Shown here one piece after another: positions 334-40,447 of a DNA stretch of 64,000 nucleotides (position 1 is the stretch's first letter; each line of letters opens with the position of its first letter). The position numbers were made by a program, and so were the translations under genes. Origin of the DNA: Tannerellaceae bacterium (lineage in GTDB: Bacteria > Bacteroidota > Bacteroidia > Bacteroidales > Tannerellaceae); contig JAJQFE010000021.1 of assembly GCA_021201295.1 (NCBI GenBank), positions 8,208 through 72,207 on the forward strand, in the 5' to 3' direction. Below the pieces are notes generated by a model. It had not been told where the DNA came from. It made no database searches and saw only the letters and a list, made by a program, of their open reading frames with translations.

Positions 334-430
334 ATATACTAATTAATCGTGAATAATAGAACATTCACAAGTTAGAGTATTTTTTTGGATTCACCAAACA
401 TACGCCTTCATTCCCTCGATCTGTTCTTCA

Positions 431-994: not shown

Positions 995-996
995 AG

Positions 997-1521: not shown

Positions 1522-1680
1522 TCGAGTAAAAAGTTAATAGTATACTACCTGCCTGTCAGCCTTTCCGGTCTTGCTTCCCGGTTGACCTGGCCTGTCTTAT
1601 ACGGAATAAAGTACTATTGGTTGATTATGAGTGTGTAAAACAGTGCTATTGGTTATCTGCTGAAACTGTCTTACCGGGTT

Positions 1681-2634: not shown

Positions 2635-2640
2635 GGTTTG

Positions 2641-3189: not shown

Positions 3190-3215
3190 ATAGCGTATCC
3201 GGATTATACAAAAAA

Positions 3216-3269
3216 GACAATTGACAACCGACAATCTTTAGAATAAATAATTGTCAATTGTCAATTGTC
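3216..3269 (-). terminator. long hairpin built from ATTGTCA-type heptamers, downstream of tRNA-Thr
   Basis: gacaattgacaaccgacaat (3216..3235) pairs with attgtcaattgtcaattgtc (3250..3269) at 18 of 20 positions, with a 14-nt loop. It lies directly after the tRNA on the minus strand. Confidence 0.5.
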
Positions 3270-3287
3270 CTGTATCCATTTATGTTA

Positions 3288-3361
3288 AGCCTCTTGTCGG
3301 ATTCGAACCAACGACCCCGAAATTACAAATCACGTGCTCTGGCTAACTGAGCTAAAGAGGC
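3288..3361 (-). tRNA. tRNA-Thr (anticodon UGU)
   Basis: 74-nt cloverleaf on the minus strand: acceptor GCCTCTT/AAGAGGC, D-arm GCTCAGTTAGCCAGAGC, anticodon loop TTTGTAA (TGT), T-arm GTTGGTTCGAATCCGAC. One T:T mismatch in the anticodon stem. Confidence 0.8.
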
Positions 3362-3462
3362 AGGTGGGTAAGCTGACTACATCGCGCCGCTACAACCAAG
3401 TACCCTTGCTGCGGTCAAGCCCTGGGGGAGTTCCGAGGGAGCATGCCGTATAGGACTTACCC
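3362..3462 (-). ncRNA. ffs: probable signal recognition particle RNA (4.5S/ffs-like), ending directly next to tRNA-Thr
   Basis: ~100-nt non-coding stretch on the minus strand closed by GGGTAAG ... CTTACCC. The 3' half contains GCAGCAAGG and GATGTAG, which match the E. coli 4.5S RNA 3' half from memory. A TAccTTTG promoter box lies just upstream. I could not fold the helix-8 apex convincingly by hand. Confidence 0.5.
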
Positions 3463-3467
3463 GGGTG

Positions 3468-3475
3468 CAAAGGTA
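3468..3475 (-). promoter_or_regulatory. Bacteroidetes -7 promoter box (TAccTTTG) for the SRP-like RNA / tRNA-Thr transcript
   Basis: Plus-strand caaaggta is TACCTTTG on the minus strand and matches the TAnnTTTG consensus. The identical octamer precedes rplY at 16571..16578. Confidence 0.6.
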
Positions 3476-3600
3476 GATATATTTTCCATATCTCCAAATG
3501 TTTTTTTCAAAAAAATGTCTGCTTTCCGCTAATTTACTGGCTTCCTTGCTGTTTTAACGGTAATTTTACTAATGGCAAACGGAGTGGCTGCTTTAGAAAG

Positions 3601-3666
3601 GGTGCACCGGTTTTAGCCAACGGGTGCACCGTTTTCATAAAAACGGTGCACCGGATTTGCTTAGGA
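3601..3666. promoter_or_regulatory. three 22-bp tandem units, each starting with the palindrome GGTGCACC (candidate operator array)
   Basis: GGTGCACC at 3601..3608, 3623..3630 and 3645..3652, an exact 22-bp phasing. It lies in the divergent intergenic region between the SRP-like RNA and the purF-like gene. Confidence 0.5.
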
Positions 3667-3752
3667 TCCGAAGGGAATTTATTGGGGAAATGACCTTTAA
3701 AAAAGTTGGAAAAGGAATCCGGTATATGCTCTTTGGAATGCAAATAATATTA

Positions 3753-3760
3753 TATCTTTG
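3753..3760 (+). promoter_or_regulatory. -7 promoter box TAtcTTTG upstream of the purF-like gene
   Basis: tatctttg lies 32 nt upstream of ATG 3792. Confidence 0.55.
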
Positions 3761-3791
3761 TACCTCATTAAAATCAAAATAGACATAAATA

Positions 3792-5195
3792 ATGGGCGGT
3801 TTTTTTGGAACTATTTCTCATTCGGCTTGTAAAACCGATTTATTCTACGGAACAGATTGCAACTCTCACTTAGGCACCCGGAGGGGTGGGATGGCAACCC
3901 TTCATAATGGTACATTTAAACGATCGATTCATAATCTTGAAAACTCTTATTTCCAGACTTGTTTTGAAAGTCAGTTGGATAAGTTTGAAGGAAACTCGGG
4001 GATTGGTGTGATCAGTGATACGGATCCCCAGCCGATCTTCCTCCATTCCCATTTAGGGAAACATGCGATTGTTACAGTGGCCCGGATCAATAATATTGAG
4101 GCGCTGGAAAGAGGTCTGATCGCAAAGGGTTGTCACTTTACCGAACTAAGTTCCGGCCAGATCAATCAGACGGAATTAATCGCCCTGCTGATCTCGCAGG
4201 GAAAGAACTTTGTGGAAGGGATCGAAAATGTATACAACCAGATAGAAGGTTCCTGCTCCATGCTTATTCTTACTGAGCAGGGAATTATTGCTGCCAGAGA
4301 TAAGTACGGACGCACACCGATCCTGATCGGCCGGAAAGAGGATGCGTTTGCCGCCTCCAGTGAACCCTGTAGCTTTCCTAATCTGGGCTATGAACCTTAT
4401 TACGATGTAGGACCCGGAGAGATCGTAATGCTGACTGCGGATAAGATGACCCAGTTGAGGAAACCCAATGAAAAGATGAAGGTGTGTTCTTTCTTATGGG
4501 TATATTACGGGTATCCGGTTTCCGAATACGAAGGAGTCAATGTGGATGCCGTACGCCGGGAAAGTGGGGTCCGGATGGCACAGAAGGACCAGGTGGATGC
4601 TGATTTTGTTTTCGGTATACCGGATTCCGGTATTGGAATGGCGTTAGGGTATGCGGAAGGAAAACAGATCCCTTATCGCCGGGCTATTGTTAAATATACG
4701 CCTACCTGGCCCCGTAGTTTTACACCATCCAATTAGGATATCCGGGATCTGGTGGCTAAAATGAAACTGATCCCTAACCGTCATCTGCTGAAAGGGAAAC
4801 GGGTGGTTTTCTGTGATGACTCTATTGTCAGGGGTACCCAGTTAAGAGATAATGTAAATATTTTATATCGATATGATGCGAAAGAGGTGCATATGCGTAT
4901 TGCCTGTCCTCCGATTATGCACTCCTGTCCTTATTTGGGATTTTCAGCCTCTAAATCATCCCTGGAGCTGATTACCAGACGGATTATTAAAGAACTGGAA
5001 GGAAATGATTCGGTGGCGCTGGATAAATATGCTATGACAGATTCGGAGCAGTATACTAAAATGGTGGATTGTATTCGCCGTAAACTTAATATCACTACTT
5101 TGCGTTTTAATACCGTAGAGGATCTGGTGGCTTCCATCGGTCTGCCGAAAGCATGTGTATGTACGCATTGTTACGACGGAACGGGAAACGATTGA
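3792..5195 (+). pseudogene. amidophosphoribosyltransferase (PurF) paralogue lacking the N-terminal Cys nucleophile, interrupted by an in-frame TAG
   Basis: ORFs 3792..4736 and 4752..5195 are in the same frame, separated only by TAG 4734..4736. The context RSFTPSN*DIRDLVAKMKLIPN...GKRVVFCDDSIVRGTQ aligns with PurF RTFIxPxQxxR...DDSIVRGTT, so the stop replaces the conserved Gln. The N-terminus is MGGFFG rather than MCG. Confidence 0.75.
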
Positions 5196-5258
5196 TTAGA
5201 GGCTAAACCGGTCTTTCTTTGACAGTTGAATGTCGATAGTTCGTTTAAATGAGATAGT

Positions 5259-6485
5259 ATGAGATTAACAGAACGATTTCTGAAATATGTGACTTTTGAT
5301 ACGGAGTCTGATGAGGCATCCGGAGCAGCTCCCAGTACACCGGGACAACGGGTTTTTGCGGAGGAGTTAGTGAAAGAATTGCAGGAGTTGGGACTGGAAG
5401 ATATCACACTGGATGATAAGTGTTACCTGATGACTACTTTACCGGCTAATACGGATAAAAAGGTTCCGGTGATCGGCTTTATTGCGCATCTGGATACCAG
5501 TCCGGATCTGTGTGGTAAAGATGTCAAGCCCCGCAGGATTTCTTATGCGGGTGGTGATATTCTGTTATCGGATAAAGAACAGATTGTTTTGTCTCCGAAA
5601 ATGTTTCCGGAACTGAATGATTATATTGGCCAGGAGTTAATCGTAACGGATGGCACAACACTGTTGGGTGCGGATGATAAAGGCGGGATTGCGGCGATAA
5701 TTTCAGCTATGGAATATCTGAAAGAACATCCGGAGATCCCTCATGGAAAGATACGGATTGCTTTTACTCCGGATGAGGAGATCGGACAGGGTGCTGATTT
5801 CTTTGATGTAGAGAAATTCGGTGCTGAGTGGGGCTATACTATCGACGGTGGCCAGATCGGCGAGCTGGAGTATGAAAACTTTAATGCTGCAGCTGCCAAA
5901 GTACTTTTTAAGGGATTGAATGTTCATCCGGGAACTGCGAAGAATAAGATGGTCAATGCCTCTTTACTGGCTACTCAGTTTGCTGCCTGGTTACCTGCCA
6001 GTCAACGTCCAGAACACACTGCCGGGTATGAGGGCTTTTTCCATCTGATCGCTATGTCCGGTTCTGTGGAAGAGGCTTCCTTATCTTATATCATCCGGGA
6101 CCATGACCGGGCATTGTTTGAACAGAAAAAACAGTTGTTGGCTACCCTGGTGGCTACCATGAATGAGCTTTATCCCAATAGCACCCGTCTGGAAATCAGG
6201 GACCAGTATTATAATATGCGTGAGATTGTGGAACCCAAGAAGTTTATTATTGACCTGGCATTTGAGGCCATGACTGCCGTAGGCGTGACTCCTATCGTCA
6301 AGCCGATTCGTGGTGGTACGGATGGGGCACGTCTCTCTTTTATGGGATTACCTTGTCCCAATATTTTTGCCGGAGGCCATAATTTCCATGGACGGTATGA
6401 ATTCCTGCCGGTTGAATCCCTCCGGAAAAGTATGGAGACTATCGTAAAGATCTCAGAATTGTTGATGGATATGTGGAATCAGTAG
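5259..6485 (+). CDS. pepT: peptidase T (tripeptide aminopeptidase, M20B)
   Basis: 408-aa ORF. N-terminus [19 protein letters not shown], plus IAHLDTSPD and [11 protein letters not shown] motifs. Confidence 0.85.
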
Positions 6486-6567
6486 TTAGAGGAGTTACAG
6501 GAGTTAAGGAGTCAGGTAGAAAGAAAAAATATTTAGCTACTTAACTCCTTTGATTCCTTTGACTACT
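6481..6567. repeat. intergenic low-complexity hairpin repeat (AGTAGTTA / AAGGAGT word family), copy A
   Basis: Left arm agtagttagaggagttacaggagttaaggagtcaggtag, right arm ctacttaactcctttgattcctttgactact. It shares the exact 15-mer AGGAGTTAAGGAGTC with copy F (62392..62406). It begins at the pepT stop codon. Confidence 0.7.
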
Positions 6568-6579
6568 AAAAAATATAAC

Positions 6580-7665
6580 ATGAAAACAACCCCTTTTACT
6601 GATGTGCATATTGCTTTAGGTGCTAAGATGCATGAGTTTGCAGGCTATAATATGCCGATAGAATATTCCGGAATCATAGATGAGCACAATACAGTCTGTC
6701 ATGGTGTAGGTGTATTTGATGTATCCCATATGGGAGAATTCTGGGTGAAGGGCCCAAATGCGCTGCCTTTTCTCCAGAGCATTACTTCTAATGATGTCTC
6801 GGCACTGACAGTCGGTAAGGCACAATATACCTGTTTCCCTAATGAGGAAGGAGGAATAGTAGACGACTTATTGGTCTATTACTATGAAGCTGAAAAATAT
6901 TTACTGGTAGTCAATGCCAGCAATATAGAGAAAGACTGGAACTGGTGTGTAAGTCATAATACAGTCGGTGCTGAACTGGAAAATTCCTCTGATCGTACAG
7001 GGCAGTTAGCTGTGCAGGGTCCTAAGGCAACAGCCGTTTTACAGCGGTTAACTCCGGTAGATCTTTCAGCGATTCCCTATTATTCGTTTGTTACCGGTGA
7101 GTTTGCCGGTTGTAAGCATGTCATTATTTCCAATACCGGATATACAGGGGCAGGTGGGTTCGAACTTTATTTCTATCCGGAAGATGGCATGACGATCTGG
7201 AATGCTATTTTTGAAGCAGGTAAACCGGAAGGAATTAAACCGATCGGTCTGGGGGCACGTGATACGTTACGTCTGGAAATGGGATTCTGCCTCTATGGCA
7301 ATGATCTGGATGATACCACTTCTCCGATTGAAGCTGGTTTAGGATGGATCACTAAGTTTACGGATGGAAAAAACTTTACTAACCGTGTAGAACTGGAACG
7401 TCAGAAAAAGGAGGGAGTAACCCGTAAATTATGTGCGTTTGAGTTACAGGACAGAGGGATTCCCCGGCATGGTTATGAGATTGTGGATACAGAAGGAAAT
7501 GTCATAGGAGAAGTTACCTCCGGAACGATGTCTCCCACTACCAAAAAAGGAATTGGGATGGGATATGTAAAACCAGCGTATGCCAAAGTGGGTACGGAGA
7601 TCTTTATCCGGATCCGTAATAAGGATCTGAAAGCGCAGGTAGCCAAACCTCCTTTCCGTAAATAA
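6580..7665 (+). CDS. gcvT: glycine cleavage system aminomethyltransferase GcvT
   Basis: ORF track 6550..7665 (TTG start). I prefer ATG 6580 ([29 protein letters not shown]...). Full-length GcvT-like, 361 aa. Confidence 0.85.
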
Positions 7666-28003: not shown

Positions 28004-30027
28004 ATGAGACAAAGACAATTGTATCAACCGAATGTCTATTGCTTTAAGAGATTTATGCGAAAAGGCTATGGCGCATTTGCCAGTTTGCGCAGGGTGGTAA
28101 ACATTGGAGTGGTTGGAGGCGCTGTGCTAACTTGTATGCCTGTGTCGACTACATCTGCCCAACAGGTTACCGGAAAAGAACAACCAAAAGTAATGGAACA
28201 GGAGCTGGATGAAGTGATGGTGACTGCTTCCCGAATAGAGACTCCTGTGAATCAAACGGCCAGGTTGGTCACGGTGATTACCAAAGAACAGATTGAGCAG
28301 GCGCCCGTCCGGAGTATTCAGGATCTGTTAGTATATGTTGCTAACATAGATGTCATCCAGCGCGGAGGACATGGCGTGCAAGCCGATATTTCGATCCGTG
28401 GAGGATCTTTTGACCAGAACGCAGTACTACTAAACGGAGTTAACCTTTCCAATTCCCACACAGGCCACTACAGTTTTGACATTCCCGTCAATCTTTCCGA
28501 CATTGAACGTATAGAAATTATTCACGGACCTTCCGCATTAATTTACGGAGCCAGTGCATTTTCCGGAGGAATTCATATTATTACTAAAAAAATGTGGATA
28601 ACCGGTTGTATGCAAATATAGAAGCTGGTATGCATAATCTCCGGGGTGTTGAGGTGCGCGGAGCGGCCGGAATAGGTAAAACCACACATACACTTTCTGC
28701 AGGATACAACTCATCGGAAGGTTATATAGCCAACAGTGATTATGATATTTATAACCTGTTCTGGCAAACTCGTTTGCAGCTAAATGAAACTGATAAACTG
28801 GATCTGAACCTGAGGTTTAATGATAAGAACTATGGAGCGAATACCTTTTATTCTGCTATATATCCGGAACAATATGAACAAACCAGCAGCTATGTGGGCA
28901 CTTTGAAAGGAGAGTTCGAAAAGCGGTTTAAAATGATCCCGATCCTCTATTGGAACTGCCATCATGATCAATTTGACCTGGTCCGGGGAACAGATTTCGG
29001 ACGGAACTTTCACCGGAATGATATGTATGGAGCCAATCTGATCTTTACTTATCCGTCTGTTCTGGGTATCACCAGTCTGGGAGGAGAAATCCGCAAAGAA
29101 GATATCATGAGTAGTGTCCTGGGGAAACCCATGGCAGAACCTCACCGGAAATATGTGATGTACGATGACCGGATCAATACCAGTGTAGCTTTGGAGCATA
29201 CGGTTACCTGGAATCGGTGGATCGCTTCTGCCGGTATCCTGATGAATCACAACACCATATTAAAGGGAACCTATAAATTTTATCCCTCTGTTAATCTAAG
29301 CTACCGCCCGGCAGATGAGGTAAAATTCTACACTTCCTGGAGTCGGTCTACTCGTATGCCTACTTTTACAGATCTTTATTATACCACAGAAACACACCAT
29401 GGAAATGACGGATTACGACCGGAAAGGTCTGAGTCCTGGGATGTGGGAGTGAAATATAATTCCCGGTTAGTAACTGCCTACCTGGCCGGATTTCTTTTAT
29501 GGGGAAGGGATATTATTGACTGGGTCAAGGAAACACCGGAGGCTACCAAATGGGCCTCCTGGAATATGACGAAGATCAATACCCGAGGAATAGAAGCCGG
29601 TGTCAAATTCCGCCTTGGGGAGTTGGTTCCCCTGTTAGGAGAGCCTGCCTCCTTGGCGTTGGATTACGCCCGTATGCATCAATCATGTGACACACAGGAT
29701 CTGATCTCTGTATACAGCCTCAATTACCTGCGGGATAAATTCACCATGAAGTTCAATCACCGCATATGGAATGGTTTCTCTGCGGACTGGTATTTCCGCT
29801 TCCAGAAACGGATGGGATCTTATGAAAAATATGAAGCGCTGAAAAAAGTAGGGGATGAACCGTACCCGGCTTTTTCCACGCTGGATCTGAAGTTGAATTA
29901 TCAATACCAGGAGATCACCTTTCATCTGACTTTTAATAACCTGTACAATACTCACTATTTCGACCGGGGGAATATTCCCCAGCCTAGCTTTTGGCTGATA
30001 GGTAGGATTAGCTATGTGATTAAGTGA
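28004..30027 (+). pseudogene. TonB-dependent receptor (plug + barrel) split by a frameshift in an A7 tract
   Basis: ORFs 28004..28621 and 28594..30027. ...GGIHIITKK joins NVDNRLYANIEAG... if run 28586..28592 has 8 A instead of 7. Plug motifs DEVMVTASR, IERIEIIHGPSALIYGA. The true start is possibly MRKGYGAF at 28055. Confidence 0.8.
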
Positions 30028-30081
30028 TACTATAGGATTGATAGTAAATAAAAGCTAAGATATTTATTTTTATTTATGATT

Positions 30082-30124
30082 AAAAAAACACCTTAGACTA
30101 ATCCATTTTAGTCTAAGGTGTTTA
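30082..30124. terminator. bidirectional rho-independent terminator
   Basis: AAAAAAA-acaccttagacta-atccattt-tagtctaaggtgt-TTT, a 13-bp perfect stem. It serves the convergent TonB receptor and precursor-peptide genes. Confidence 0.8.
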
Positions 30125-30163
30125 GAATTAGGGAAAGTAATTGTTTTTCCCCTTTTGGCTCAT

Positions 30164-30319
30164 TTAGAAGGTTCTTCCAATAGTACCTCCTGCCGGATTG
30201 ATTTTAAAAGAGTTATTACCATAAGTATAACCTCCTTTTAATTCACTTTGCTCTTGCTCAGTTAGTGTATCCAGCTCTTTCAGTTTGTCTTGGATACTAA
30301 TTTTCTTAAGCTTTTTCAT
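30164..30319 (-). CDS. 51-aa putative RiPP precursor with a double-glycine (GG) leader
   Basis: Own translation (below the 60-aa ORF-track cut-off): MKKLKKISIQDKLKELDTLTEQEQSELKGGYTYGNNSFKINPAGGTIGRTF*. It is the last gene of the minus-strand operon, 57 nt after the protease gene, and is followed by the strong terminator. Confidence 0.7.
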   Translation of the reverse strand: MKKLKKISIQDKLKELDTLTEQEQSELKGGYTYGNNSFKINPAGGTIGRTF

Positions 30320-30376
30320 GCAAATTAAATTTTAAATTAGTAATTGAAAACCGATCACCCAAAAGAGTGATATTCA

Positions 30377-31741
30377 TTAATTGAATTTTATCCACATATC
30401 ACGAAAATTAAATGTGATTTTATCACTTTTTCTTATAATTATGTCTCCTAACATCCCATCACAATGCTGATTAGCTATTATTATATCGTTCTCTGCATCA
30501 GTGTTAATTATGGACTGCGAAGAAAAGAAATCGAGCTGGTTAAATTCGACATAGATATTTTGTGGTTTAAACACCCAGGATTGTTTAATCCCTTGTAGCA
30601 TTAACATATTAAATTTTTCTTTTTGATTTTCATGAAAAGAAAATTTATCACTTTGTTCATAATACCTGTAATTTATATAGAAGTCCTGATTACTTCCTGT
30701 GTCCAGCCAACCAATGAAGTTCGTACTTTCTAATTTGCATTTTAATAACAATTGGTTATCAGCAATAGTAATTAAATTTATATTCTCAGTTATAGGAGAC
30801 GATTGGGAAGGTATCAATAATTTGTTTTGATTAAAATCGAATTGAAATTCATCAATCATCTTCATGATTGAAATACCTAATATTAATCCCAGGCTATCCA
30901 TAAAGTGAGTTGCATTTTCAAATTTTTCTTTTGAATTTTCATTCAGATCCGGAACATTTAGAAAAGAACAAGAAACTATAGAATCAACAGGTACCCAGAC
31001 AGGTACATTATAAATTGTTATATGACCGATTTTTAAACTATCGATCATTCCTTTTTTTGCTTTTAATTCTTTATTATTCACCATTATAGTGTCATGAGAT
31101 GCATATTTAACCCTTATAGAGCTTGCTAATTGCTGGTTTATAAAACATTCTGTTGCACCTGTATCAAAAATGGCTTTTAACTTTGTTTCATTACTAATTA
31201 CTTCAAAATTTAAACCTTCTGTTTTAGGATCGGCAATCAGGTCTAATAGAATATCCTGTTCCGGGGAAGGATTAGTGAGATAGGTTTTAGGTTGCAAATC
31301 GAAAGTGTTCATTTCATCTTTCAGATATAAAAATACAGCTTTCATTTCATCTCCTAATTCAAATTTGTCAGCCAAATGAAATAATATGTCACATATGTCA
31401 GATGCCTTTTTATAGTTCTGAATCTCAATATAATTATTTAGATTTAATCCATACCATTCAATACAATTAGATCCCATAGATTCACCGAACTCTGTAATTA
31501 TCTGGTTGGTTACATCTATTGCTTTAGCTGGTTGATTTGTATAGGTATATATATACGCTTCAGCAGCTAAATTTTCATAACCTGTAATATTGTTTTTGTT
31601 CTTGTCATAATACTCCCTTAATTCTATCCATCTGCGTTCTGAAATAAATTTTAATACTATTTGTTCTGTGAGGTTACCTTGACAAAGTAAAAAACTGCTG
31701 CAAAAAATGCATAAAGTAAATATAAACTTTTTCATGCTCAT
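30377..31741 (-). CDS. secreted two-lobed retropepsin-like aspartic protease with an N-terminal helical domain
   Basis: 454-aa ORF. Signal peptide MSMKKFIFTLCIFCSSFLLCQG. Two catalytic-type motifs, FDTGATECFIN and WLDTGSNQDFYI, each followed by an ILG/MLG segment. Its start overlaps the rSAM stop (TAATG). Confidence 0.65.
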   Translation of the reverse strand: MSMKKFIFTLCIFCSSFLLCQGNLTEQIVLKFISERRWIELREYYDKNKNNITGYENLAAEAYIYTYTNQPAKAIDVTNQIITEFGESMGSNCIEWYGLNLNNYIEIQNYKKASDICDILFHLADKFELGDEMKAVFLYLKDEMNTFDLQPKTYLTNPSPEQDILLDLIADPKTEGLNFEVISNETKLKAIFDTGATECFINQQLASSIRVKYASHDTIMVNNKELKAKKGMIDSLKIGHITIYNVPVWVPVDSIVSCSFLNVPDLNENSKEKFENATHFMDSLGLILGISIMKMIDEFQFDFNQNKLLIPSQSSPITENINLITIADNQLLLKCKLESTNFIGWLDTGSNQDFYINYRYYEQSDKFSFHENQKEKFNMLMLQGIKQSWVFKPQNIYVEFNQLDFFSSQSIINTDAENDIIIANQHCDGMLGDIIIRKSDKITFNFRDMWIKFN

Positions 31742-33586
31742 TATATTAATATGTTTGTGTTAATTATAGATACAATCTCTGTATAATCTTTATTTATATA
31801 AATAAGTCTTTCTTTTTTCAATTCATTCAATATATCTATTATTTCTTCCTGCGGTTTACCAAAAAGGTTTGTTAGATTTTGTAATGAGACTACTTTATTA
31901 TTTGCTTCATCTAATATCTTCCATTCAATAGAATGAGTTTCAAATTCTAATTCGTTGATCATTCTTTCATTATAATATTCTTTATAACGAACAGACTTAT
32001 TATCTATTAAAATTAACTTGTATTCATATTTACTTTTTAAATAATAAGATTCGATTCGTTGAAATTCATACCACAAAGGATGTTCATAACATTTGAACGC
32101 TTCAAGAATATTGAATTCAGGATCTCCTTTTGGTAGATAAGAATCGGATAAATGACTTTTAAAAGGATGACGTTTACTCCAGAGAATTTCATTTTCTCCT
32201 TTTATAAGTTTATAATATCGGCTGGCTTTGGTGACTCCCAGCTCTGAATAATTATGTTCAAACAACTCTTTATGTAAAAAGAACCTGAGGTTATGTAAGT
32301 TTTCAATACTTTCCAAAATATCAGCCTCTGTTTCTTCCAATAAATTTTTAATGATATTTGCACCTCCTACATATATCTGGAATAGGATAGCATATTTAAT
32401 GAAAAGTAAATTACTTGCAAAGCTATTTTTTTTCTCAATTTTTTTGAGTAATGTATCACTGGCAGACTCATATCCTATTTGTATGTGGACAAAGCCTGCT
32501 AATGACATTTTTTTATGAAGTCAAAAGTTATGTCTTTTGTAATTATTTCTGCTAACATAATTTTGAAATCTGGATATTTCTCTTTTAGTTGGATTAATAA
32601 ATTAAGTAGTTTATCAAATCTTTCCAAATCCTTACCAATTACATCGTTATCCAAAAAATGAAAGTTAGAAATATGATAGGTTTTTATCATATATTCCATC
32701 TCTTCTACAATAATTTCAGGAGGTTTTACTCTAAATCGGTAACCCGTATTCAAATAACAGAAATGGCATTTTTCCCAATGACAGCCTCTTCCTCCTTCTA
32801 TAGGGATACCAATGGTTTGAGGATCTATGTTAATCTGATTAAAATAATCGCTATAATCAGGTCTGATTTTTAAAGAAGACATAGAAATATAATTATTATT
32901 ATGGATACCAGTTGTTATAATAATGTTATTTTTTCGATATGCCATATTGGATATTGTATTATAATCTGATGACTTTTCTATACTTTTTGTGAGTAGAAGT
33001 AATGCATTTTCTCCTTCTCCCCATAATGCTATGTCAAATTGGTCAAAATTAGTGAGATAAGCTTTCGCGGCGTCTTTAGTTCTGATTCCCCCTATAACTA
33101 TTGGAATGCCAGGATTGAGTTCTTTTATTTTTTTAGCAATAATACTGGAAAATACCCATTGATATAAATTCACTGATAAACCTATATACAAAAGATCTTC
33201 ATAATTTATACTCTTGATGGTTTCATCTATGAAATTTTTTGTCTTTATATAGTATTCATTCATATGCTCTTTAAAAAAATCCGGATGCATATTAAGGTAT
33301 TGAGGTTTCAGTGTGATGAGAGAGGCTTTAATATTATTAAAGGCTACTTCATCCTTATCTTCATGTGCCAAATAGTTGAAAAACAGGTTTAGAGCATATC
33401 TATTTTGTCAATATTATTTAGACCCCAAACAAATTTTGATTGTAAATCCGAGAATAGAATATTCCAATAAAGAATATCAACCTGATAACCTTCACTTACC
33501 ATAAATGCTTTTAATACAGACATTGGCGGAGATGGGATTTCTATCATGGAAGGAGGAACCCAATTTAATAATATGCGTGTTTTCAT
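31741..33586 (-). pseudogene. B12-binding-domain (class B) radical SAM enzyme, split in three by two homopolymer frameshifts as assembled
   Basis: ORFs 33389..33586, 32499..33371 and 31741..32508. The N-terminus is B12-domain-like (KTRILLNWVPP..., LYIGLSVNLYQW...IPIVIGGI). The Cys motif is GGRGCHWEKCHFCYLN. The joins are restored by one extra A in the coding-strand A4 (plus-strand T 33403..33406: ...NNIDKNRYALNLFFNYLAHED...) and in the A7 (plus-strand T 32508..32514: ...DFIKKMSLAGFVHIQIGYES...). Confidence 0.7.
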
Positions 33587-34356
33587 AAGCTATTTTTGTG
33601 AGATTGATTTAATTCCATACAAGAACTTTTATAAGTTCTGTTTAATTCGTTTTTGGAAATATATACTTGTAGTTCATTACAATAAGTGCTGTTTTCATTC
33701 CTTGGATGTGAAAGATGATATAGAATATTTTTACTTCTATAAATTATGAATTTACGGTTTCTAAATTGATGAAAACGATTGAAATCTTCATCTCCCCATC
33801 CGTAAAAAAGTTCATTTTCTAATCCTGCTTCAATGTATTTTTCTTTATTCATAATGACTGCTCCTCCTACCAGAGATCTATGATGTAAGATTTCCATTCT
33901 CTCCTTATATTTATATAGAATTTTTATCTTTTTCTTTTTTATAAAAAGTTCTCTTACAGGAATGGATGTATTTAAACATACTCCATTATAAGGTATTCCC
34001 ATATCAGCTTTATTCTCTCGCAGCCGTTTAACACATTCAAGTATATATTTTTTCTCAGCAATAATATCGGCATCCCAAATAGCTATAAATTTAGTATTGA
34101 CTTTATTAGCCATTTGATTATAATATTTTGTTTTATGTAATATATAATCTTCATCTTCTACAAATTGATACCGGATCTTTTTCTTCAGTGTTTTCTGTAG
34201 TATATGATTGCAATATTTGTCTGCTTCATATATGTATATATGAGTATGAAAATTATCCATCAGATAGTTCGTGACTAGCAAAATATTTTCAAGTCTTTCA
34301 ATAGAATCTATTCTTACTAACAGAATGAATGTAACATCTGATAAATCTGTTTTCAT
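33583..34356 (-). CDS. GT-A fold glycosyltransferase (GT2 / Glyco_transf_7C-like)
   Basis: 257-aa ORF. VTFILLVRIDS, WDADI (DxD) and the GWGDEDFN motif, which resembles the galactosyltransferase C-terminal family. ATGA overlaps at both ends. Confidence 0.6.
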   Translation of the reverse strand: MKTDLSDVTFILLVRIDSIERLENILLVTNYLMDNFHTHIYIYEADKYCNHILQKTLKKKIRYQFVEDEDYILHKTKYYNQMANKVNTKFIAIWDADIIAEKKYILECVKRLRENKADMGIPYNGVCLNTSIPVRELFIKKKKIKILYKYKERMEILHHRSLVGGAVIMNKEKYIEAGLENELFYGWGDEDFNRFHQFRNRKFIIYRSKNILYHLSHPRNENSTYCNELQVYISKNELNRTYKSSCMELNQSHKNSL

Positions 34357-35375
34357 AATGTATTTTTATAATAGTTGTAAAACAATACTGATCCCAAACC
34401 TCCTTCCATAAGATCCATAAGTTTACTTGACGGTAAATGGAAAATTAGGTTCTCCAATTCCTCTGAATTTTCAATTCTTCTTAATATGTATTTCTTTACC
34501 TGAGGAATATCCTCAGGAATATGATCTTTTAATCGGGATAATAATAAAAAGATACTGATTAATCCGTCCTTTAAATAAATATCTTTATCTCTTAATTCAT
34601 TGTGTATAAGTGTAGTTAGATTTAACTCCTGTTTTCTTTTATAGAAATACTCTTTCCACTCACAATCCTTAAAAATGTAAGAAATATTTAATATTGCCCA
34701 TAAAAGATATAAAAGGTTTCCTTGATTGACGGGTATATATCTTGTAATAGGTAACTTATATTGATTCAGTATTTTCCCTATTCTTTCTCCGAATTTTTCT
34801 GTATTTCCAAGTTTGCTTAAAATGTATAAAAAGAGAGGGACTATGTAGTCTATAGAATAAATAGGAGGCTCTTTAAAAAAGAGAATATCTATTTTTTTGT
34901 GTAATTGATCAAGTATAAGAGAAATGGTTCGATTAAAAAAATATTTATCATCAGAACCTACAGGCTGTTGTTTAACTCGGATTTCCAGATAAAATAATAT
35001 ATGAATTAATGTCTTTATTGGGATTTTCGACAGACTATCAGAATAAGTTACTTGTTTTAATATAATATCATCCATATCTGATAATATAAGATTCTCGTTT
35101 CCCTTAATGAATTCGGCCTTTAGTAAATAATGGATTCCCAGCCCTATGCCAGTCCAACCTGTTTCCATATCTAAAGATAAAGCGGGAGTCAGTTCAAGTG
35201 TTATTTCTTCAAAAAGAATAGTAGCTTTTCTTCTATATTCTTTATCGTCATTTATTTCTCCCATTAGAAAGAAGTAAATACATACACCCATTTTTCCATG
35301 AAATAATCCCAGAGGTAAATTGTGAGTACTGGTACTAAGTATTTTTTCTTCTAATATTTTCCATCTGTCATTCAT
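34353..35375 (-). CDS. hypothetical alpha-helical repeat protein with weak LanC-like Gly-rich helix-start motifs and no Zn ligands
   Basis: 340-aa ORF. GLFHGKMGVCIYFF, GWTGIGLGIHYLL and GGLGSVLFY motifs. No WCxG/CHG motifs. Paralogous to the 35623..36423 product. Confidence 0.35.
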   Translation of the reverse strand: MNDRWKILEEKILSTSTHNLPLGLFHGKMGVCIYFFLMGEINDDKEYRRKATILFEEITLELTPALSLDMETGWTGIGLGIHYLLKAEFIKGNENLILSDMDDIILKQVTYSDSLSKIPIKTLIHILFYLEIRVKQQPVGSDDKYFFNRTISLILDQLHKKIDILFFKEPPIYSIDYIVPLFLYILSKLGNTEKFGERIGKILNQYKLPITRYIPVNQGNLLYLLWAILNISYIFKDCEWKEYFYKRKQELNLTTLIHNELRDKDIYLKDGLISIFLLLSRLKDHIPEDIPQVKKYILRRIENSEELENLIFHLPSSKLMDLMEGGLGSVLFYNYYKNTL

Positions 35376-35622
35376 AATTTGATTTATTATTACAGAAGTG
35401 GTTTATCATAAATAAAATTGTTTGTAAGTTAATAAATTAAAATCTAATTTGAAGCTTATGTTGTGATAAATTAACTAAATGAGTAAATTAAATGATTTGG
35501 ATAATTATTTTCTAAACTATAATAGTTTATGTATTATAATTAATTAATAAATATTATTTTTTTAATTGATAGAGAGATTTTTATATCTTTAGTAACTTTT
35601 TATTTTAAACCGGAATTGTTTT

Positions 35623-36423
35623 ATGAATTACTTACCTCAAATCTCTGAATCTCATTATACTAAAGAATTTAGTATGAGGTCAGGATTAGCCGGGTTATTG
35701 GTATTTTATTTTTATAGTGCAAAATATACTCAACAGGAGTTATATGAGAAGAAAGGATATGATACTTTAGATATCATATTAGAAAGAGTGGCAAAGGGGA
35801 ATTTTACTAATCTTTATATTTTAGTAGAAATAGGGGTAGTTCTCAATTTCCTTGTGCGGGAAGGTTTTTTGGAAGAAGATGATCAATCTATATGGAGTGA
35901 TTTGGATATCAATATATATAAAGAATTATTCCATACATTATATTTTAATTTCGGATTTGAGAACGGTTTATTGAAATTTTACCGTTATTATTTGCAACGA
36001 TCTTCTGCTTATTCAGAAATAGGTCTGAAAATAATTTTGAATCATTTGTTTGGCTGTTTTCGTATTTCAGGGTATAATTCTCATCCAGTTGATGCACTTT
36101 ATCTTTTACCTTCAGATATAATTGAGGATATAAAAATTTTTATTCTGGAATTAGAGAGTAGAAACCTCTTTTATAAAGAAACTACTTTGCTGAAAGAGCT
36201 TTTAAACGAATTTGAAAATAGACAACAGCCTTTACAAACAAATTATCCAGAGTATGAAATTCTTCAAAAATTAAGGAAAACAAAATTTTCTTTACATAGT
36301 ACTATAGAAGTAAAGAAATGGATAGAAATTCTTATTGGCCTTTCTGAGGAGGAAATAATTCGTGGGTTAGCTACTATGAAAATGAATCAACCTCATTTAC
36401 CTGATATTTGGGAATTGCTCTAA
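35623..36423 (+). CDS. hypothetical alpha-helical protein, paralogue of the 34353..35375 product
   Basis: 266-aa ORF. SGLAGLLVFYFY and IGVVLNFLVREGFLEEDDQSIWSDLDINIYKEL align with GKMGVCIYFF and IGLGIHYLLKAEFIKGNENLILSDMDDIILKQV in the paralogue. Confidence 0.35.
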   Translation: MNYLPQISESHYTKEFSMRSGLAGLLVFYFYSAKYTQQELYEKKGYDTLDIILERVAKGNFTNLYILVEIGVVLNFLVREGFLEEDDQSIWSDLDINIYKELFHTLYFNFGFENGLLKFYRYYLQRSSAYSEIGLKIILNHLFGCFRISGYNSHPVDALYLLPSDIIEDIKIFILELESRNLFYKETTLLKELLNEFENRQQPLQTNYPEYEILQKLRKTKFSLHSTIEVKKWIEILIGLSEEEIIRGLATMKMNQPHLPDIWELL

Positions 36424-36433
36424 AACAGAATAA

Positions 36434-37322
36434 ATGCTTATGATACCTGAAATATCTGTTATTATTTCAGTCTATAATGCTGAATCTTATATAGAGGAGT
36501 GTTTAAATTCTGTTATGACTCAAACATTTCGGAATATTGAAGTGGTGCTTATTGATGACGGATCTGAAGATCTTTCAAATGAGATCATGCAGTCTTTTTG
36601 TATAAAAGATAAACGTTTTAAATTATTCAGTCAACCGAATGCCGGAGTATCAGCTGAAAGAAATGAAGGAATAAAAAGATCGACTGGTAGGTATATATTT
36701 TTTCTGGATAGTGATGATACACTTATTTCAACCACATTTGAAGAACTATCTATTCGTACTCATAAAACAGATGCTGATATTATAATGGGAAATATTCTCT
36801 TTTGTACACCGGATGGTAAACAGACAATGCCTTATGAGAGAGAAGAGCCATTTAAGGATGTATTAGAAATTAAGGGAGATATCTGTTATCTGGAACTTAT
36901 GAGAATGAATTCATTTCCTCCTTTAGTTGGTGTATATCTGATTAAAAGATCTTTTCTGTTTAATAATCAATTCTTTTTTTAGGGAGGGAGTAATACATGA
37001 AGATGAGTTATGGTGCATGAACGTTTTGATATTAGCTGATAAAGTTTCTCTTTTGGATTTAATCTATTATTTATACAAACAGAATAGAGAGGAATCTTTG
37101 ATGAATACCAATAATAAAGAATTTCGTATCCATTCACTGGTAGAAATTTCGCAAGAGATTTATTCTTTGGCAAATTCTTTATATAAGCAGAACGTAATTA
37201 ATAAGAATGCAGTAGGTTATGTTTATGCCAGAATATTTCTTCTGTATCATGAAATAGCCAGATTAATAATTGATTTGCCGGGAAAAAAATGTTTAATCTA
37301 TCCATTTTTGACCATATACTAA
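36434..37322 (+). pseudogene. family-2 glycosyltransferase, frameshifted in a T7 tract as assembled
   Basis: ORFs 36434..36982 and 37017..37322. ISVIISVYNAESYIEECLNSV, VLIDDGSED, GVSAERNEGI and FLDSDD motifs. ...NNQFFF joins REGVIHEDELWCMNVLI... if run 36974..36980 has 6 T instead of 7. Confidence 0.75.
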
Positions 37323-37445
37323 AGTGTTCTTATAGTAAATTAAATTATAAACAACAAAAATATGTTTTAAATATCTATTGTTTAGCTACTTATCTTATGA
37401 AATGTTTTAATTAACTGTAAAAGTATGACTTTCTAACAATAGTAC

Positions 37446-37453
37446 TATCTTTG
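37446..37453 (+). promoter_or_regulatory. -7 promoter box TAtcTTTG upstream of the YiiX-like gene
   Basis: tatctttg lies 33 nt upstream of ATG 37486. Confidence 0.5.
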
Positions 37454-37485
37454 TATAGTTTAATGAATATGCTTTGAAAGAAATT

Positions 37486-38136
37486 ATGTATGGATTATTA
37501 TTTTTGATAATTACTTTTTTTCCTCAAACCGAGATCCCCTTTACTCTTTAAACCGGGGACCTGATCTTTCAGGAATCCTGTCCGGAGGAGCCGGATGACA
37601 GGATCAAAGAGGTCACAAATAGTATTGGAGAGTACCACTTTACGCATGTGGGGATTGTCTGGATAGATGAACAGGAGAATCCTTTTGTGATTGAAGTGAC
37701 TATTCCCCGGGTGGTTGTTATGCCTTTGAAAGCTTATCTTTATCCAGAAGATAAAAAGGAATGCTATCCGATCTCAGTGGTTGAGCGATTGAAGGAAGAA
37801 TGGCAACCTTTGATTCCGGATGCGATCCGGGAAGCTTTTACTCATGTAGGTAAAGCATATGATCATGGATATATATTAAATAATGATACGTATTATTGTT
37901 CGGAACTTATTTATGAGATTCTGCTCAGGGCTAACCAGGGAGAAGCTGTGTTCCCTTTGAATGAAATGACCTTCAGGTCTCCGGTGACCGGGGAGTTTAC
38001 AGAGGGCTGGATCCGGCATTTTGAGGAGTTGGGAATGCCTGTTCCGGAAGGAGAACCCGGAATTAATCCCGGAGCCATGTCCCGTTCGGAAGTAATTGAT
38101 ATGGAACTATATGTTTTTCCTATATCACCTTACTAA
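37486..38136 (+). pseudogene. YiiX-family permuted papain-like (NlpC/P60-type) hydrolase with an in-frame TAA
   Basis: ATG 37486 is in frame with ORF 37648..38136. MYGLLFLIITFFPQTEIPFTL*TGDLIFQESCPEE... has TAA at 37549..37551, where YiiX proteins have Gln (PQTGDIIFQ, from memory). Confidence 0.65.
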
Positions 38137-38413
38137 TCAGGAAATGTATCCGACACAGAGAAGGTAAATTTTCATAAATAGAAGTATGATTTAGGAATGG
38201 GGGTTTGTTATGTCCAAAATAAAAAATCGTTAGCTTTTCATCTGTATTTAACTTATTTTCTTATCTGCAGAAGTCTATGTGATTTGCATGATCCTGTGCT
38301 CTAATTATTTTAGTGTCAGATGCATTGCCTTCCTGATTTTATTCTTCGGCAGATTTTCTTTTTTATGACTCTTTTAACCGTAGATTTCATCTAAAATGTT
38401 CATCTTTGTAAAG

Positions 38414-39679
38414 ATGAAAGAAGGAATTCTGGATAAGTTGAAAATCCTGGCGGAGTCGGCCAAATATGATGTTTCCTGTGCTTCCAGTGGTACAACCCAG
38501 AAGAGTCAGAAGGGAGGAATCGGTAGTGCACATGGCTGGGGTATCTGTCATTCGTTTACCGAAGACGGGCGCTGTGTATCATTGCTTAAGATCATGATGA
38601 CCAACTATTGTATGTTTGATTGTGCTTATTGTGTGAACAGGCGAAGCAATGATATTCCCCGTGCGACGATGACAGTCCGTGAATTGGTGGAACTGACCAT
38701 TGAATTCTACCGGAGAAATTATATTGAAGGATTGTTTCTGAGTTCCGGGGTAATCCATAGTTCGGATCATACGATGGAACGTATGGTACGGGTTTTAAAA
38801 GAGCTGCGTACTATCCATAAATATAATGGGTATATTCATATGAAAAGTATTCCCGGAGCGAGCCGGGAACTGGTGAATGAAGCCGGACTTTATGCCGATC
38901 GTCTGAGTGTAAATCTGGAGATTGCCAGAGAGGATAATCTCAAATTGCTGGCTCCGGAAAAAGACCACCAGAGTATTTACCAGCCAATGGCCTATATTTA
39001 TCAGGGTGTCCTGGCCAGCCTGGAGGAACGAAAACACTTTAAACATGCCCCTCGGTTTGCTCCGGCAGGACAAAGTACTCAGATGATCATTGGAGCTACG
39101 AGTGAAACGGACCGGGAGATACTCCAATTGTCTACTGCTTTATATAGAAGGCCCAGTATTAAACGGGTCTATTATTCCGGATATATTCCAGTGAACTCTT
39201 ATGATGCCCGCCTGCCGGCTTTGAAGCAAGCTCCCTTAGTCAGGGAGAACCGCTTATACCAGGCGGACTGGCTTATGCGTTTTTATGGTTTTCAGGAAAA
39301 TGAGATCGTAGATGATTCCTATCCGAATTTAGATCTGGAAGTGGACCCCAAACTGGCATGGGCACTTCGGCATCCGGATAAATTTCCGGTGGATCTGAAT
39401 AAGGCAGAGTATGCCATGATCCTGCGGGTTCCCGGTATTGGTATAAAGTCGGCTAAACTGATCATTGCTACCCGGCGGTATGGTAAGATCACAGCCTCTA
39501 CTTTGAAAAAAATAGGTGTAGTGATGAAAAAGGCGCAGTTTTTCATCACTTGTCATGAGTTACCCCGGGTTACGGTCCATGAAGCTCATCCGGAGTATGT
39601 TCGTCAATTCCTTACCCAAAAGAAAAGTGCTAAAAAAGAATCGGACCAGCGACAATTGTCTATTCTGTTTCCGGATTAA
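38414..39679 (+). CDS. putative DNA modification/repair radical SAM protein (TIGR03916-like)
   Basis: ORF track 38396..39679; the likely start is MKEGILDKLKIL at 38414. It has a CMFDCAYCVNR CxxxCxxC motif and a C-terminal helix-hairpin-helix-like region. Confidence 0.7.
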   Translation: MKEGILDKLKILAESAKYDVSCASSGTTQKSQKGGIGSAHGWGICHSFTEDGRCVSLLKIMMTNYCMFDCAYCVNRRSNDIPRATMTVRELVELTIEFYRRNYIEGLFLSSGVIHSSDHTMERMVRVLKELRTIHKYNGYIHMKSIPGASRELVNEAGLYADRLSVNLEIAREDNLKLLAPEKDHQSIYQPMAYIYQGVLASLEERKHFKHAPRFAPAGQSTQMIIGATSETDREILQLSTALYRRPSIKRVYYSGYIPVNSYDARLPALKQAPLVRENRLYQADWLMRFYGFQENEIVDDSYPNLDLEVDPKLAWALRHPDKFPVDLNKAEYAMILRVPGIGIKSAKLIIATRRYGKITASTLKKIGVVMKKAQFFITCHELPRVTVHEAHPEYVRQFLTQKKSAKKESDQRQLSILFPD

Positions 39680-39685
39680 ACGACT

Positions 39686-40447
39686 ATGTTGATATTTATT
39701 TATGATAAAACATTTGAAGGGTTATTGACAGCTGTTTTTGATGCCTATAACCGGAGGATGTTTCCTGATAAACTGATAGGAGAAGGCGAACCGGAACCTT
39801 TGTTTACTCAGGAGGTTCACCGGGTGATCAATGACCCGGAGAAATCCAACCGGGTCTGGAGTGGAGTACAACAGAAAATCTCTAAGCATGCCTGTAATAT
39901 GTTGTTATGTGTCTGGTTGTCTGAGTTGCCGGGGTGTGATGAATTAATTTTGAGGTATGTCCGGAAAGTATTTGACAGGTCCTATTCTATTGAGATGAAT
40001 TTTGCCGATGATGATGTTCTGGAGGTAACTAAAATTGCCCGGAAAGTAGGGAAAGAAAAGCACTATCTGATGGAGTTTGTCCGCTTTCAGAAGGCATCGG
40101 ATGATGTTTTTTTTGCTCCGGTTTCTCCTCTGTATAATGCACTTCCATTAGCGATCTCTTTTTTTAAAGACCGTTTCTCTTATCAGAAGTGGATCATTTA
40201 TGATATCAAGCGAAAGTATGGCTATTATTATGACCTGAAAACCGTGGAGGAAATCATGTTATCGGATGATACCCATTTATTAACCGGAAAGCTGAATGAA
40301 GATCTGATGGCACAGGATGAGAAACTATTTCAGGATCTATGGAAAAACTACTTTGGTGCTTTGACGATCCGGGAACGAATTAATCCTAAACTTCAACGTC
40401 AGCATATGCCCCGGCGTTTCTGGAAATTCCTGACGGAGAAGCAATAA
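39686..40447 (+). CDS. DUF4130 / TIGR03915-like putative DNA metabolism protein (partner of the radical SAM gene)
   Basis: 253-aa ORF MLIFIYDKTFEGLLTAVFDAYNRR... 6 nt downstream of the rSAM gene. From memory, this is a conserved gene pair. Confidence 0.65.
   Translation: MLIFIYDKTFEGLLTAVFDAYNRRMFPDKLIGEGEPEPLFTQEVHRVINDPEKSNRVWSGVQQKISKHACNMLLCVWLSELPGCDELILRYVRKVFDRSYSIEMNFADDDVLEVTKIARKVGKEKHYLMEFVRFQKASDDVFFAPVSPLYNALPLAISFFKDRFSYQKWIIYDIKRKYGYYYDLKTVEEIMLSDDTHLLTGKLNEDLMAQDEKLFQDLWKNYFGALTIRERINPKLQRQHMPRRFWKFLTEKQ

Follow-up and report, generated by a model that had tools for sequence, protein, structure and literature searches.

Bacteroidales dominate the human gut, and to our knowledge almost none of the RiPPs (peptides that are synthesized by ribosomes and modified after translation) predicted in them have been characterized. 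GG-Bacteroidales systems combine TIGR04149 precursors, whose leaders end in Gly-Gly (GG), with a TIGR04148 radical S-adenosylmethionine (SAM) enzyme of the SPASM type and a pseudo-radical SAM protein; the TIGR03975 (rSAM_ocin_1) RiPP C-methyltransferases have an N-terminal class-B (cobalamin-type) domain, a radical SAM core and an adjacent small precursor; and clusters that join a radical SAM enzyme to a non-canonical LanC protein, in some cases with a glycosyltransferase, were mined by Fernandez-Cantos et al. 2023 (PMC10352776), in which B12 and aspartic proteases go unmentioned. Here we analyse an AT-rich, seven-gene island in a 64,000-nucleotide stretch of contig JAJQFE010000021.1 (hereafter the window, meaning that whole stretch), from an uncultured Tannerellaceae metagenome-assembled genome (MAG), which shares the leader type of the first of these systems and the enzyme layout and adjacent precursor of the second. 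We consider it likely that the island is a horizontally acquired, recently inactivated copy of a recurrent, uncharacterized Bacteroidales RiPP cluster, itself an apparently undescribed variant of the radical SAM RiPP clusters of this order.

The seven genes are predicted to encode a GG-leader precursor, a secreted aspartic protease, a class-B radical SAM enzyme, two LanC-like proteins (A and B) and two glycosyltransferases, one GT-A and one GT2 (Table 1). A preliminary description of the island could match this combination to no RiPP class known to it, and our search agrees: in the literature covered, with most subscription journals outside its scope, we found no described class with the island's gene set, no Bacteroidota RiPP system joining a B12-radical SAM enzyme to an aspartic protease and no report of a retropepsin-type protease at work in a RiPP pathway.

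Results

A recurrent family of Bacteroidales gene clusters

The combination of genes does not stand alone. Locus scans with an alignment of the radical SAM protein recovered 20 loci in genomes of Bacteroidales species and 80 metagenome loci, with homologs of 35–51% identity, in hosts that include Mediterranea, Alistipes, Bacteroides, Prevotella/Segatella, Duncaniella, Paraprevotella, Limibacterium, Muribaculaceae and Lentimicrobiaceae. Grouped at ~85% identity, these loci make up about 44 radical SAM clusters, over which we tabulated gene co-occurrence: a homologous Cys-poor GG-leader precursor stands beside the radical SAM or protease gene in at least 15, a C39-peptidase ATP-binding cassette (ABC) exporter is present in 15, the protease gene follows the radical SAM gene in 12, and the LanC-like/GT-A pair is found in 6. 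The window's own order (LanC-like, GT-A, radical SAM, protease) is kept in three loci (L016, L019 and L033), and the order radical SAM then protease in L017, L020, L025 and L030.

Fuller relatives add a C39-peptidase ABC transporter (PCAT), HlyD and a TolC-like outer-membrane efflux protein; some carry a GT2, others a second, SPASM-type radical SAM enzyme or an OMP_b-brl_3/Plug protein. The absence of a C39 peptidase/ABC exporter, earlier listed among the features of the pathway, holds for the window, where no PCAT or HlyD exporter gene lies within the 64 kb, and not for the 15 related clusters that have one; it is a peculiarity of this copy. Word-indexed protein searches returned only 3 protease and 6 radical SAM-fragment matches, as if the family were extremely rare. 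We reject that rarity as a sensitivity artefact, because pattern-based locus scans and an exhaustive HMMER search (265 representatives of the protease family) recovered the family, whose proteins are divergent and encoded by AT-rich DNA.

An intact version, with a 625-residue radical SAM enzyme, a 436-residue protease and a precursor ending in GTVGHTHRF, occurs in ~37 contigs, mostly from human-gut metagenome assemblies (L020 and L026, contig QAKH01000079.1, and L039–L074). The GTDB representative of this version bears two paralogous radical SAM loci on one contig and is labelled a 'Clostridiales bacterium' MAG, a label that may reflect mis-binning.

A precursor with a GG leader and a conserved tail

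The leader alignment, built from 10 seed precursors, picks out a single GG-leader match among the 562 ATG-started small open reading frames (ORFs) of the window, the 51-codon precursor gene (E = 1.3e-15; runner-up E = 1.8). That this ORF is a GG-leader precursor, as first described, is supported by its conservation beside the radical SAM gene in many genera; the TIGR04149 model gives it 23.6 bits (E = 3.5e-5), under the cutoff of 25, and gives the precursors of relatives 17–20 bits or no match. A Bacteroidota-type leader ending in GG beside a radical SAM gene is nonetheless common to the window precursor and its relatives: all 14 distinct precursors that adjoin the radical SAM or protease gene have an MKK...L..L...GG leader. 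Their genes start 3–27 nucleotides after the radical SAM gene in clusters without a protease and otherwise just after the protease gene.

The cores are 21–61 residues long, with much Pro, Gly, Ser, Ile and Thr; they contain no Cys in 12 of the 14 precursors and are divergent except for a hydrophobic C-terminal tail that approximates G-x-x-hydrophobic-x-F/I/L/W; relatives end in GITYRF, GHTHRF, GATVKF, GGGITF or GSIYF, and the window precursor in TIGRTF. A final Phe closes 10 of the 14, compared with 5.3% of 3,915 background small ORFs, although kinship among the precursors makes this statistic overstate their independence. Re-screening of well-flanked loci that had no precursor, by a simple filter, yielded no further ones.

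A class-B-type radical SAM enzyme and a secreted protease

After repair of its reading frame, the radical SAM protein passes the Radical_SAM model PF04055 (46.5 bits; cutoff 29.5), and its significant NCBIfam matches are all to B12-radical SAM families. The only three PDB proteins that it matches significantly in sequence, OxsB, CysS and TokK, are all cobalamin-dependent, the OxsB match (E = 1.7e-9) spanning both the N-terminal domain and the core. These results uphold the earlier class-B assignment in general terms, while two specific cutoffs are missed. The best family, TIGR03975, scores 172.6 bits against a cutoff of 281.85 (intact homologs in L016 and L033 score 167.9 and 159.3), over residues 5–423 only, the last ~190 residues being specific to the family; and the B12-binding model PF02310 gives 21–26 bits in all members tested, 26 in the window enzyme, under a cutoff of 32.1. 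Judged by these sequence relationships, it is a class-B-type enzyme outside any curated family, with predicted use of cobalamin. Homologs elsewhere, most of them encoded by intact genes, are 608–669 residues long when intact, and the ~110-residue C-terminal domain is probably a winged helix. The cluster motif reads CHWEKCHFC in the window and is conserved as GCHWxxCxFC in homologs. Its spacing is C-x4-C-x2-C (residues ~270–280, window ~32770), the canonical radical SAM motif being C-x3-C-x2-C.

The protease carries DTG motifs at residues 193 and 347 and matches Asp_protease_2 (PF13650) at 45.1 bits, above a cutoff of 24.3. Because 25 members of its family retain both the signal peptide and the pair of D[T/S]G motifs, the sole exception being a DMG in L025, we predict that it is a secreted pepsin-like pseudo-dimer. 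Distant relatives of ~20% identity (P0002 and P0003) lie in unrelated contexts, and the protease family is therefore not restricted to RiPP clusters.

A LanC-fold protein paired with a glycosyltransferase

LanC-like protein A yielded a confident AlphaFold2 model, with a predicted local distance difference test score (pLDDT) of 91.5 and a predicted template-modelling (TM) score of 0.90. Its top 12 Foldseek matches in the PDB are all LanC-type cyclases or LanC-like proteins (TM-score 0.44–0.65), led by MadC (E = 1e-5, TM-score 0.65), whereas other toroid folds match with E > 0.09. Sequence profiles are less decisive, PF05147 giving the LanC-like proteins 17.5 and 17.0 bits, below its cutoff of 23.2. 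In a seven-member alignment of the protein A family, Cys and His are conserved at no position, and so neither the Cys-Cys-His zinc triad nor the catalytic His of a LanC cyclase is present; the precursor core, too, offers no Cys to cyclize. On the strength of the model, protein A is a LanC fold without LanC chemistry, its zinc and acid-base residues gone, as the preliminary description had proposed in calling the LanC-like pair non-catalytic. Its other enzyme assignments are likewise backed, by profile hidden Markov models (HMMs), by motifs and by this one confident structure. Protein B matches PF05147 weakly (E = 2.3e-3) and is 19% identical to A in alignment; the L019 homolog of A also matches B (E = 2e-5).

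The GT-A enzyme passes Glyco_transf_7C (PF02709; 24.3 bits, cutoff 23) and contains the motifs WDxD, ENxxFxGWGxED and LYHLxHPR, of which WDxD, GWGxED and HLxH do not vary among 4 members. The PDB sequences closest to it belong to beta4GalT7 (E = 5e-6), chondroitin synthase and beta4GalT1. The GT2 match to PF00535 is strong but generic.

Homologs of protein A (27–37% identity) are followed by a GT7-like GT-A gene, with the 4-nucleotide overlap kept, in other types of cluster as well. In human-gut loci L117–L119 the pair is accompanied by a PCAT, several large glycosyltransferases, a LuxR-type regulator, a non-B12 radical SAM enzyme and a GG precursor rich in Cys; the pair in L120 belongs to a class I lanthipeptide set that also comprises LanB, a genuine LanC and two precursors of the Lant_leader type. 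The window-type clusters, L117–L119 and L120 all use one leader type. To judge from these gene neighbourhoods, the LanC-fold/glycosyltransferase pair is a portable module that moves between RiPP chemistries, at least three of them, and this movement among clusters with a single leader type is the best evidence that the module may glycosylate peptides with the help of a LanC-fold partner. We propose that protein A is the putative peptide-binding partner of the GT-A enzyme.

Two further variants of these proteins were seen. The pair and Cys-rich GG precursor of L117 (1793–8981) lie beside very large multi-domain glycosyltransferases (GT6+GT11, GT2+GT10 and GT2+GT7C), which suggests a blood-group-like oligosaccharide built on the peptide; and P0012 (494 residues) joins a LanC-like homolog and a Peptidase_M15_4 domain in one protein.

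Probable horizontal acquisition of the island

The drop in G+C content (GC) that had been noticed by eye is sharp when computed: the whole island has a GC of 0.286 against 0.409 for the remainder of the window, and each 500-nucleotide interval across 30000–37500 lies between 0.25 and 0.32, with flanks of 0.40–0.47 on either side. A second line of evidence comes from contig L036, which carries another allele of the island. Window and L036 are 0.94–1.00 identical across the island and 0.74–0.76 identical at 37620–38120, in the adjacent YiiX gene, whose synonymous divergence (dS) is ~2.9. This fall, from 97% to 75% identity, coincides exactly with the GC boundary, and the step at the right edge argues for horizontal transfer independently of GC. 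The radical SAM gene is also AT-rich for its surroundings, 4–29 GC points under the far flanks in 21 of 21 host genomes checked, and a relative of 47% identity (L007) belongs to a mobilizable element that encodes RteC, a relaxase and MobC. Together these findings sustain the earlier suggestion of horizontal acquisition.

The left edge is not captured, since contigs L036 and L085 both end at window position 29742. The 3' end of the TonB receptor gene that precedes the island is 99% identical to L036 and may therefore belong to the transferred segment. Composition and identity both break at the island, and its ends show no integrase, tRNA or flanking direct repeats.

The L007 element (1–7100) additionally encodes AbiH, AbiEii, ParA, DUF3408 and Fic proteins. 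In a sibling sample (L009, 3912–11305) the island breaks off within the protease gene, at ~31656 of the window, with unrelated DNA beyond: a DUF2188 gene, an AAA_21/AAA_15 and RloB pair, and a set resembling a cyclic-oligonucleotide-based antiphage signalling system (CBASS), made up of a patatin, an SMODS/DncV-like CD-NTase, an E1/E2 fusion and a JAB protein. This junction is a variable hotspot in the population.

Frameshifts and probable recent inactivation

In the DNA as assembled, the pathway is broken. The radical SAM gene spans three frames and the GT2 gene two, so that neither is an intact ORF, whereas the precursor, protease, GT-A and both LanC-like genes are intact. The radical SAM gene has a −1 slip in each of two tracts, A4 at ~33407 and A7 at ~32515, and all breaks in it and in the GT2 gene sit in A/T homopolymers. 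Four alleles were sampled, and the radical SAM gene is broken in every one, partly at different tracts. Logan contigs from two runs (L001 and L002) are 100% identical to the window and have the same breaks; contigs from at least four other runs (L008–L011) represent a 99.4% allele with more breaks; and IMG contigs L036 and L085 represent a 95–97% allele at the same chromosomal site, yet with other breaks.

Set side by side, the alleles show only indels of ±1 in an A/T run or ±2 in a TA repeat. The window break at 32515 is an in-frame A8 in all other alleles; that at 33407 is common to L008 and L009 and is an in-frame A5 in L036 and L085, which have a break at 33135 in common; and at the GT2 break (36980) L036 has an in-frame T6 and an intact ORF of 286 residues. 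To the common radical SAM breaks are added private ones in other genes, a nesting which suggests that the radical SAM gene was hit first, independently in two clades of the Tannerellaceae population, with further slips later.

Repair of the slips alone leaves all seven genes free of stops. The ratio of nonsynonymous to synonymous substitution rates (dN/dS), measured against L036, is 0.09–0.33 in six of the seven repaired genes (0.09 for the radical SAM enzyme, 0.13 for the precursor, 0.20 for both the protease and the GT-A enzyme, 0.31–0.33 for LanC-like A and the GT2), LanC-like B having the highest at 0.64. Stop-free frames and low ratios indicate purifying selection over most of the divergence and hence a recent inactivation. 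We therefore favour the view that the window copy is a recently inactivated cluster in early decay; in its present state the island probably yields no mature peptide product.

Splits of the same gene occur elsewhere in the family: the radical SAM gene of L007 is split at a poly-A tract in its ...LLRKMEKKK... region, and a homolog in L012 is split at the same region.

Two other explanations of the frameshifts were weighed. The cluster may be phase-variable, its A/T tracts acting as contingency switches or being bypassed by transcriptional slippage, so that sub-populations would make the peptide and the genes would stay under selection. We hold this to be fairly unlikely. Every lesion is of the reversible-slippage type, with no nonsense substitution or larger deletion in the four alleles, but each allele has 3–7 simultaneous breaks in several genes and many of them would have to revert at once for full ON expression. 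Three alleles have A6, A7 or A8 at 34898, and the tract at 32433 was altered independently twice; the tracts, however, are spread through the genes instead of lying near 5' ends. A/T runs of at least 7 are 2.4-fold denser inside the island than elsewhere in the window, a density to be expected from 28% GC alone. Low long-term dN/dS and a lesion count that is independent of divergence suit switching, whereas the nesting of the lesions, a common radical SAM hit followed by private ones, is that of decay.

That the frameshifts are homopolymer consensus errors of metagenome assemblies, the true cluster being intact and functional, seems to us quite improbable. The source is a MAG, the breaks all fall in an A/T homopolymer or TA repeat, the frames after repair are free of stops and show purifying selection, and the neighbouring TonB receptor gene, of normal GC, is also split at an A7. 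Yet two lesion patterns were reproduced exactly, one in two runs (L001 and L002) and one in at least four (L008–L011), and a systematic error would give one length per tract in every sample, whereas L036 and L085, from a separate project, have one break in common and differ in the others.

That the locus is no peptide pathway at all, with its glycosyltransferases and radical SAM enzyme modifying a polysaccharide or lipid and the 51-codon ORF arising by chance, is extremely unlikely: the GT2 does resemble generic exopolysaccharide GT2s and the radical SAM enzyme does weakly match lipid and hopanoid B12-radical SAM families, but a small ORF with leader and C-terminal tail is conserved beside the radical SAM gene across genera, C39-peptidase ABC exporters accompany that gene in 15 clusters, the LanC-like/GT-A cassette recurs in a canonical lanthipeptide cluster, the island has no flippase, polymerase or sugar-nucleotide genes, and what relatives carry is C39-ABC/HlyD/TolC-like peptide export, not the polysaccharide machinery that the preliminary description had named as a finding that would speak against a peptide pathway.

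Layout, control elements and neighbouring genes

The seven genes form a minus-strand operon and a divergent plus-strand operon, with ORF coordinates and overlaps exactly as first described (Table 1). Overlaps in the minus-strand operon are 4 nucleotides between LanC-like A and GT-A, 4 between GT-A and radical SAM, and 1 (TAATG) between radical SAM and protease. The strong terminator reported after the precursor gene was also recovered, as a 16-bp perfect stem followed by T7 (RNA fold −29.3 kcal/mol, z = −5.76; none of 200 shuffles folds as well). A sigma-70 promoter scan gave 50 sites where 52 were expected, no better than shuffles; the Bacteroidetes −7 motif TAnnTTTG is absent from the divergent intergenic region, and neither a cobalamin riboswitch nor any other Rfam family was found in the island.

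Table 1. Features of the island, with positions numbered from the first nucleotide of the window
Feature	Position	Strand	Description and evidence
AT-rich island	30028..37500	.	Right edge from GC and the identity step to L036; left edge from GC alone
Intrinsic terminator	30086..30123	-	End of the minus-strand operon, immediately behind the precursor gene; stem and fold score
Precursor peptide	30164..30319	-	51 aa; leader MKKLKKISIQDKLKELDTLTEQEQSELKGG, core YTYGNNSFKINPAGGTIGRTF; no Cys in core
Secreted aspartic protease (predicted)	30377..31741	-	454 aa, intact; signal peptide, helical N-terminal region, two retropepsin-type domains
Class-B (cobalamin-type) radical SAM enzyme (predicted)	31741..33586	-	~615 aa when repaired; split in three frames
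GT-A glycosyltransferase, GT7-like	33583..34356	-	257 aa, intact; PF02709 and motifs
LanC-fold protein A (predicted)	34353..35375	-	340 aa, intact; AlphaFold2 model and Foldseek
Divergent intergenic region, presumed promoter region	35376..35622	.	Between both operons; GC 0.16
LanC-like protein B	35623..36423	+	266 aa, paired with GT2; shorter, distant paralog of A
GT2 glycosyltransferase	36434..37322	+	~290 aa when repaired; PF00535 (E = 5e-33); +1 slip, T7 at ~36980

To the left of the island, the TonB-dependent receptor gene (28004–30027, plus strand), of normal GC, is split into 205 and 477 residues at an A7 near 28590, a split that recurs in L001, L002 and L008. To the right, after the C92-peptidase (YiiX-like) gene, comes a pair at 38396–40447 (plus strand) encoding a 427-residue 'putative DNA modification/repair radical SAM protein' and a DUF4130 protein. 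Elsewhere in the window, a small signal recognition particle RNA of the Bacteroidales type (RF04183, 116.5 bits; 3288–3469, minus strand) directly adjoins tRNA-Thr(TGT) and so confirms the taxon as Bacteroidales.

Discussion

The pathway that we propose concerns the intact relatives of the island; its precursor step rests on sequence, and the four that follow are extrapolated. First, a small precursor is made, with a Bacteroidota-type GG leader and a core that is poor in Cys and ends in the conserved hydrophobic tail. The class-B radical SAM enzyme would then modify unactivated carbons of the core, C-methylation being likeliest by analogy with TIGR03975, its winged-helix-like C-terminal domain probably holding the leader. 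Third, one or two LanC-fold/glycosyltransferase cassettes would glycosylate core Ser or Thr, with the dead LanC-fold protein binding the peptide. Fourth, the C39-peptidase ABC transporter, with HlyD and the TolC-like protein, would cut after GG and export the peptide, and finally the secreted two-domain aspartic protease may make a further cut outside the cytoplasm.

Several observations pull against this pathway and against the island's standing as a recently inactivated copy of it. The pathway as a whole is a prediction. The missed TIGR03975 cutoff, and a match confined to residues 5–423, mean that the radical SAM chemistry could differ from C-methylation, and all members tested fall under the Pfam B12-binding threshold. 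No RiPP recognition element emerges in the C-terminal domain of that enzyme: Pfam on 31 members returns weak, assorted winged-helix matches and no PqqD, a PDB profile search gives only sub-threshold winged-helix or CteB matches, and an AlphaFold2 model from a three-sequence alignment has a pLDDT of 38. A precursor was recognized in only about a third of the radical SAM clusters, many contigs being too short to judge, and an exporter for the island might be encoded beyond the 64-kb window. Lastly, the frameshifts (3–7 per allele) do not scale in number with divergence, which fits reversible slippage or homopolymer consensus errors too.

If the island is, as we think likely, a transferred and lately inactivated member of the family, it illustrates how such an island is lost, its core enzyme having been hit independently in two clades after transfer into the Tannerellaceae lineage. 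The family for its part links class-B radical SAM enzymes with a GG-leader precursor of Cys-poor core and conserved hydrophobic tail, and with an unusual secreted two-domain aspartic protease. Since the dead LanC-fold/glycosyltransferase pair turns up in at least three RiPP chemistries, it may represent a general, leader-guided way to glycosylate peptides.

Among known systems, the tails recall those of darobactin, of dynobactin and of the peptides at the C-termini of L-type pyocins, all of them radical SAM-modified or secreted, which block BamA and whose C-termini resemble the beta-signal of outer-membrane proteins, GXXPhiXPhi (consensus from PMC13067283; Phi, hydrophobic). Killing through such mimicry by C-terminal peptides is established, and the family tails GITYRF and GHTHRF resemble the dynobactin terminus ...SYRF. 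The strict pattern occurs in 2 of the 14 precursors against 0.15% of background ORFs, and a relaxed one in 6 of 14 against 0.59%; the window tail does not match it. One could imagine a new RiPP class whose products are beta-signal mimics: the secreted aspartic protease would trim a peptide modified by the cobalamin-radical SAM enzyme, and in some cases glycosylated, so as to expose or free a G-x-x-hydrophobic-x-F tail that docks on strand beta1 of BamA, with the LanC/glycosyltransferase pair as a general leader-guided glycosylation module common to several Bacteroidota RiPP classes; were that so, the targets would be competing Gram-negative gut bacteria, as for darobactin, dynobactin and L-type pyocins. 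We give this conjecture, drawn by analogy, a slim chance. Beta-barrel proteins encoded at these loci lack such a motif at their ends and lend mimicry no support, and the cluster differs from the darobactin and dynobactin systems in having a class-B radical SAM enzyme without SPASM, not of the DarE type, and cores of 21–61 rather than 7–10 residues.

Glycocins and glycosylated lanthipeptides also place GT-A transferases beside a GG-leader precursor, and the class I lanthipeptide cluster of L120 shares the cassette itself. Unlike glycocin clusters, the window has no SunS-type enzyme (TIGR04195 E = 7e-6, 25 bits, cutoff 350) and its cluster has no thiol-disulfide genes, a core without Cys, and a GT-A enzyme that is GT7-like and coupled to a LanC-fold partner.

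From the TIGR03975 C-methyltransferases, whose layout it resembles, the window family is set apart by radical SAM scores of 160–173 bits against 281.85 and by its Bacteroidota GG leader. Among Bacteroidales plasmids we found no member of the family's radical SAM enzymes; only TIGR03975-type genes emerged, in Streptomyces and Sinorhizobium, and these nearest annotated plasmid-borne members are only 21–26% identical to the window-family enzyme.

The comparison is closest in gene content with the GG-Bacteroidales and related clusters (PMC10352776), which likewise have LanC-like proteins without the C-gap-CH zinc triad, accessory glycosyltransferases and PCAT export, the PCAT being missing from some clusters of both kinds. 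The window family, however, has a class-B in place of a SPASM radical SAM enzyme and no pseudo-radical SAM protein, and where the cores of those clusters contain Cys, its own are Cys-poor, end in a hydrophobic tail and come with a secreted aspartic protease.

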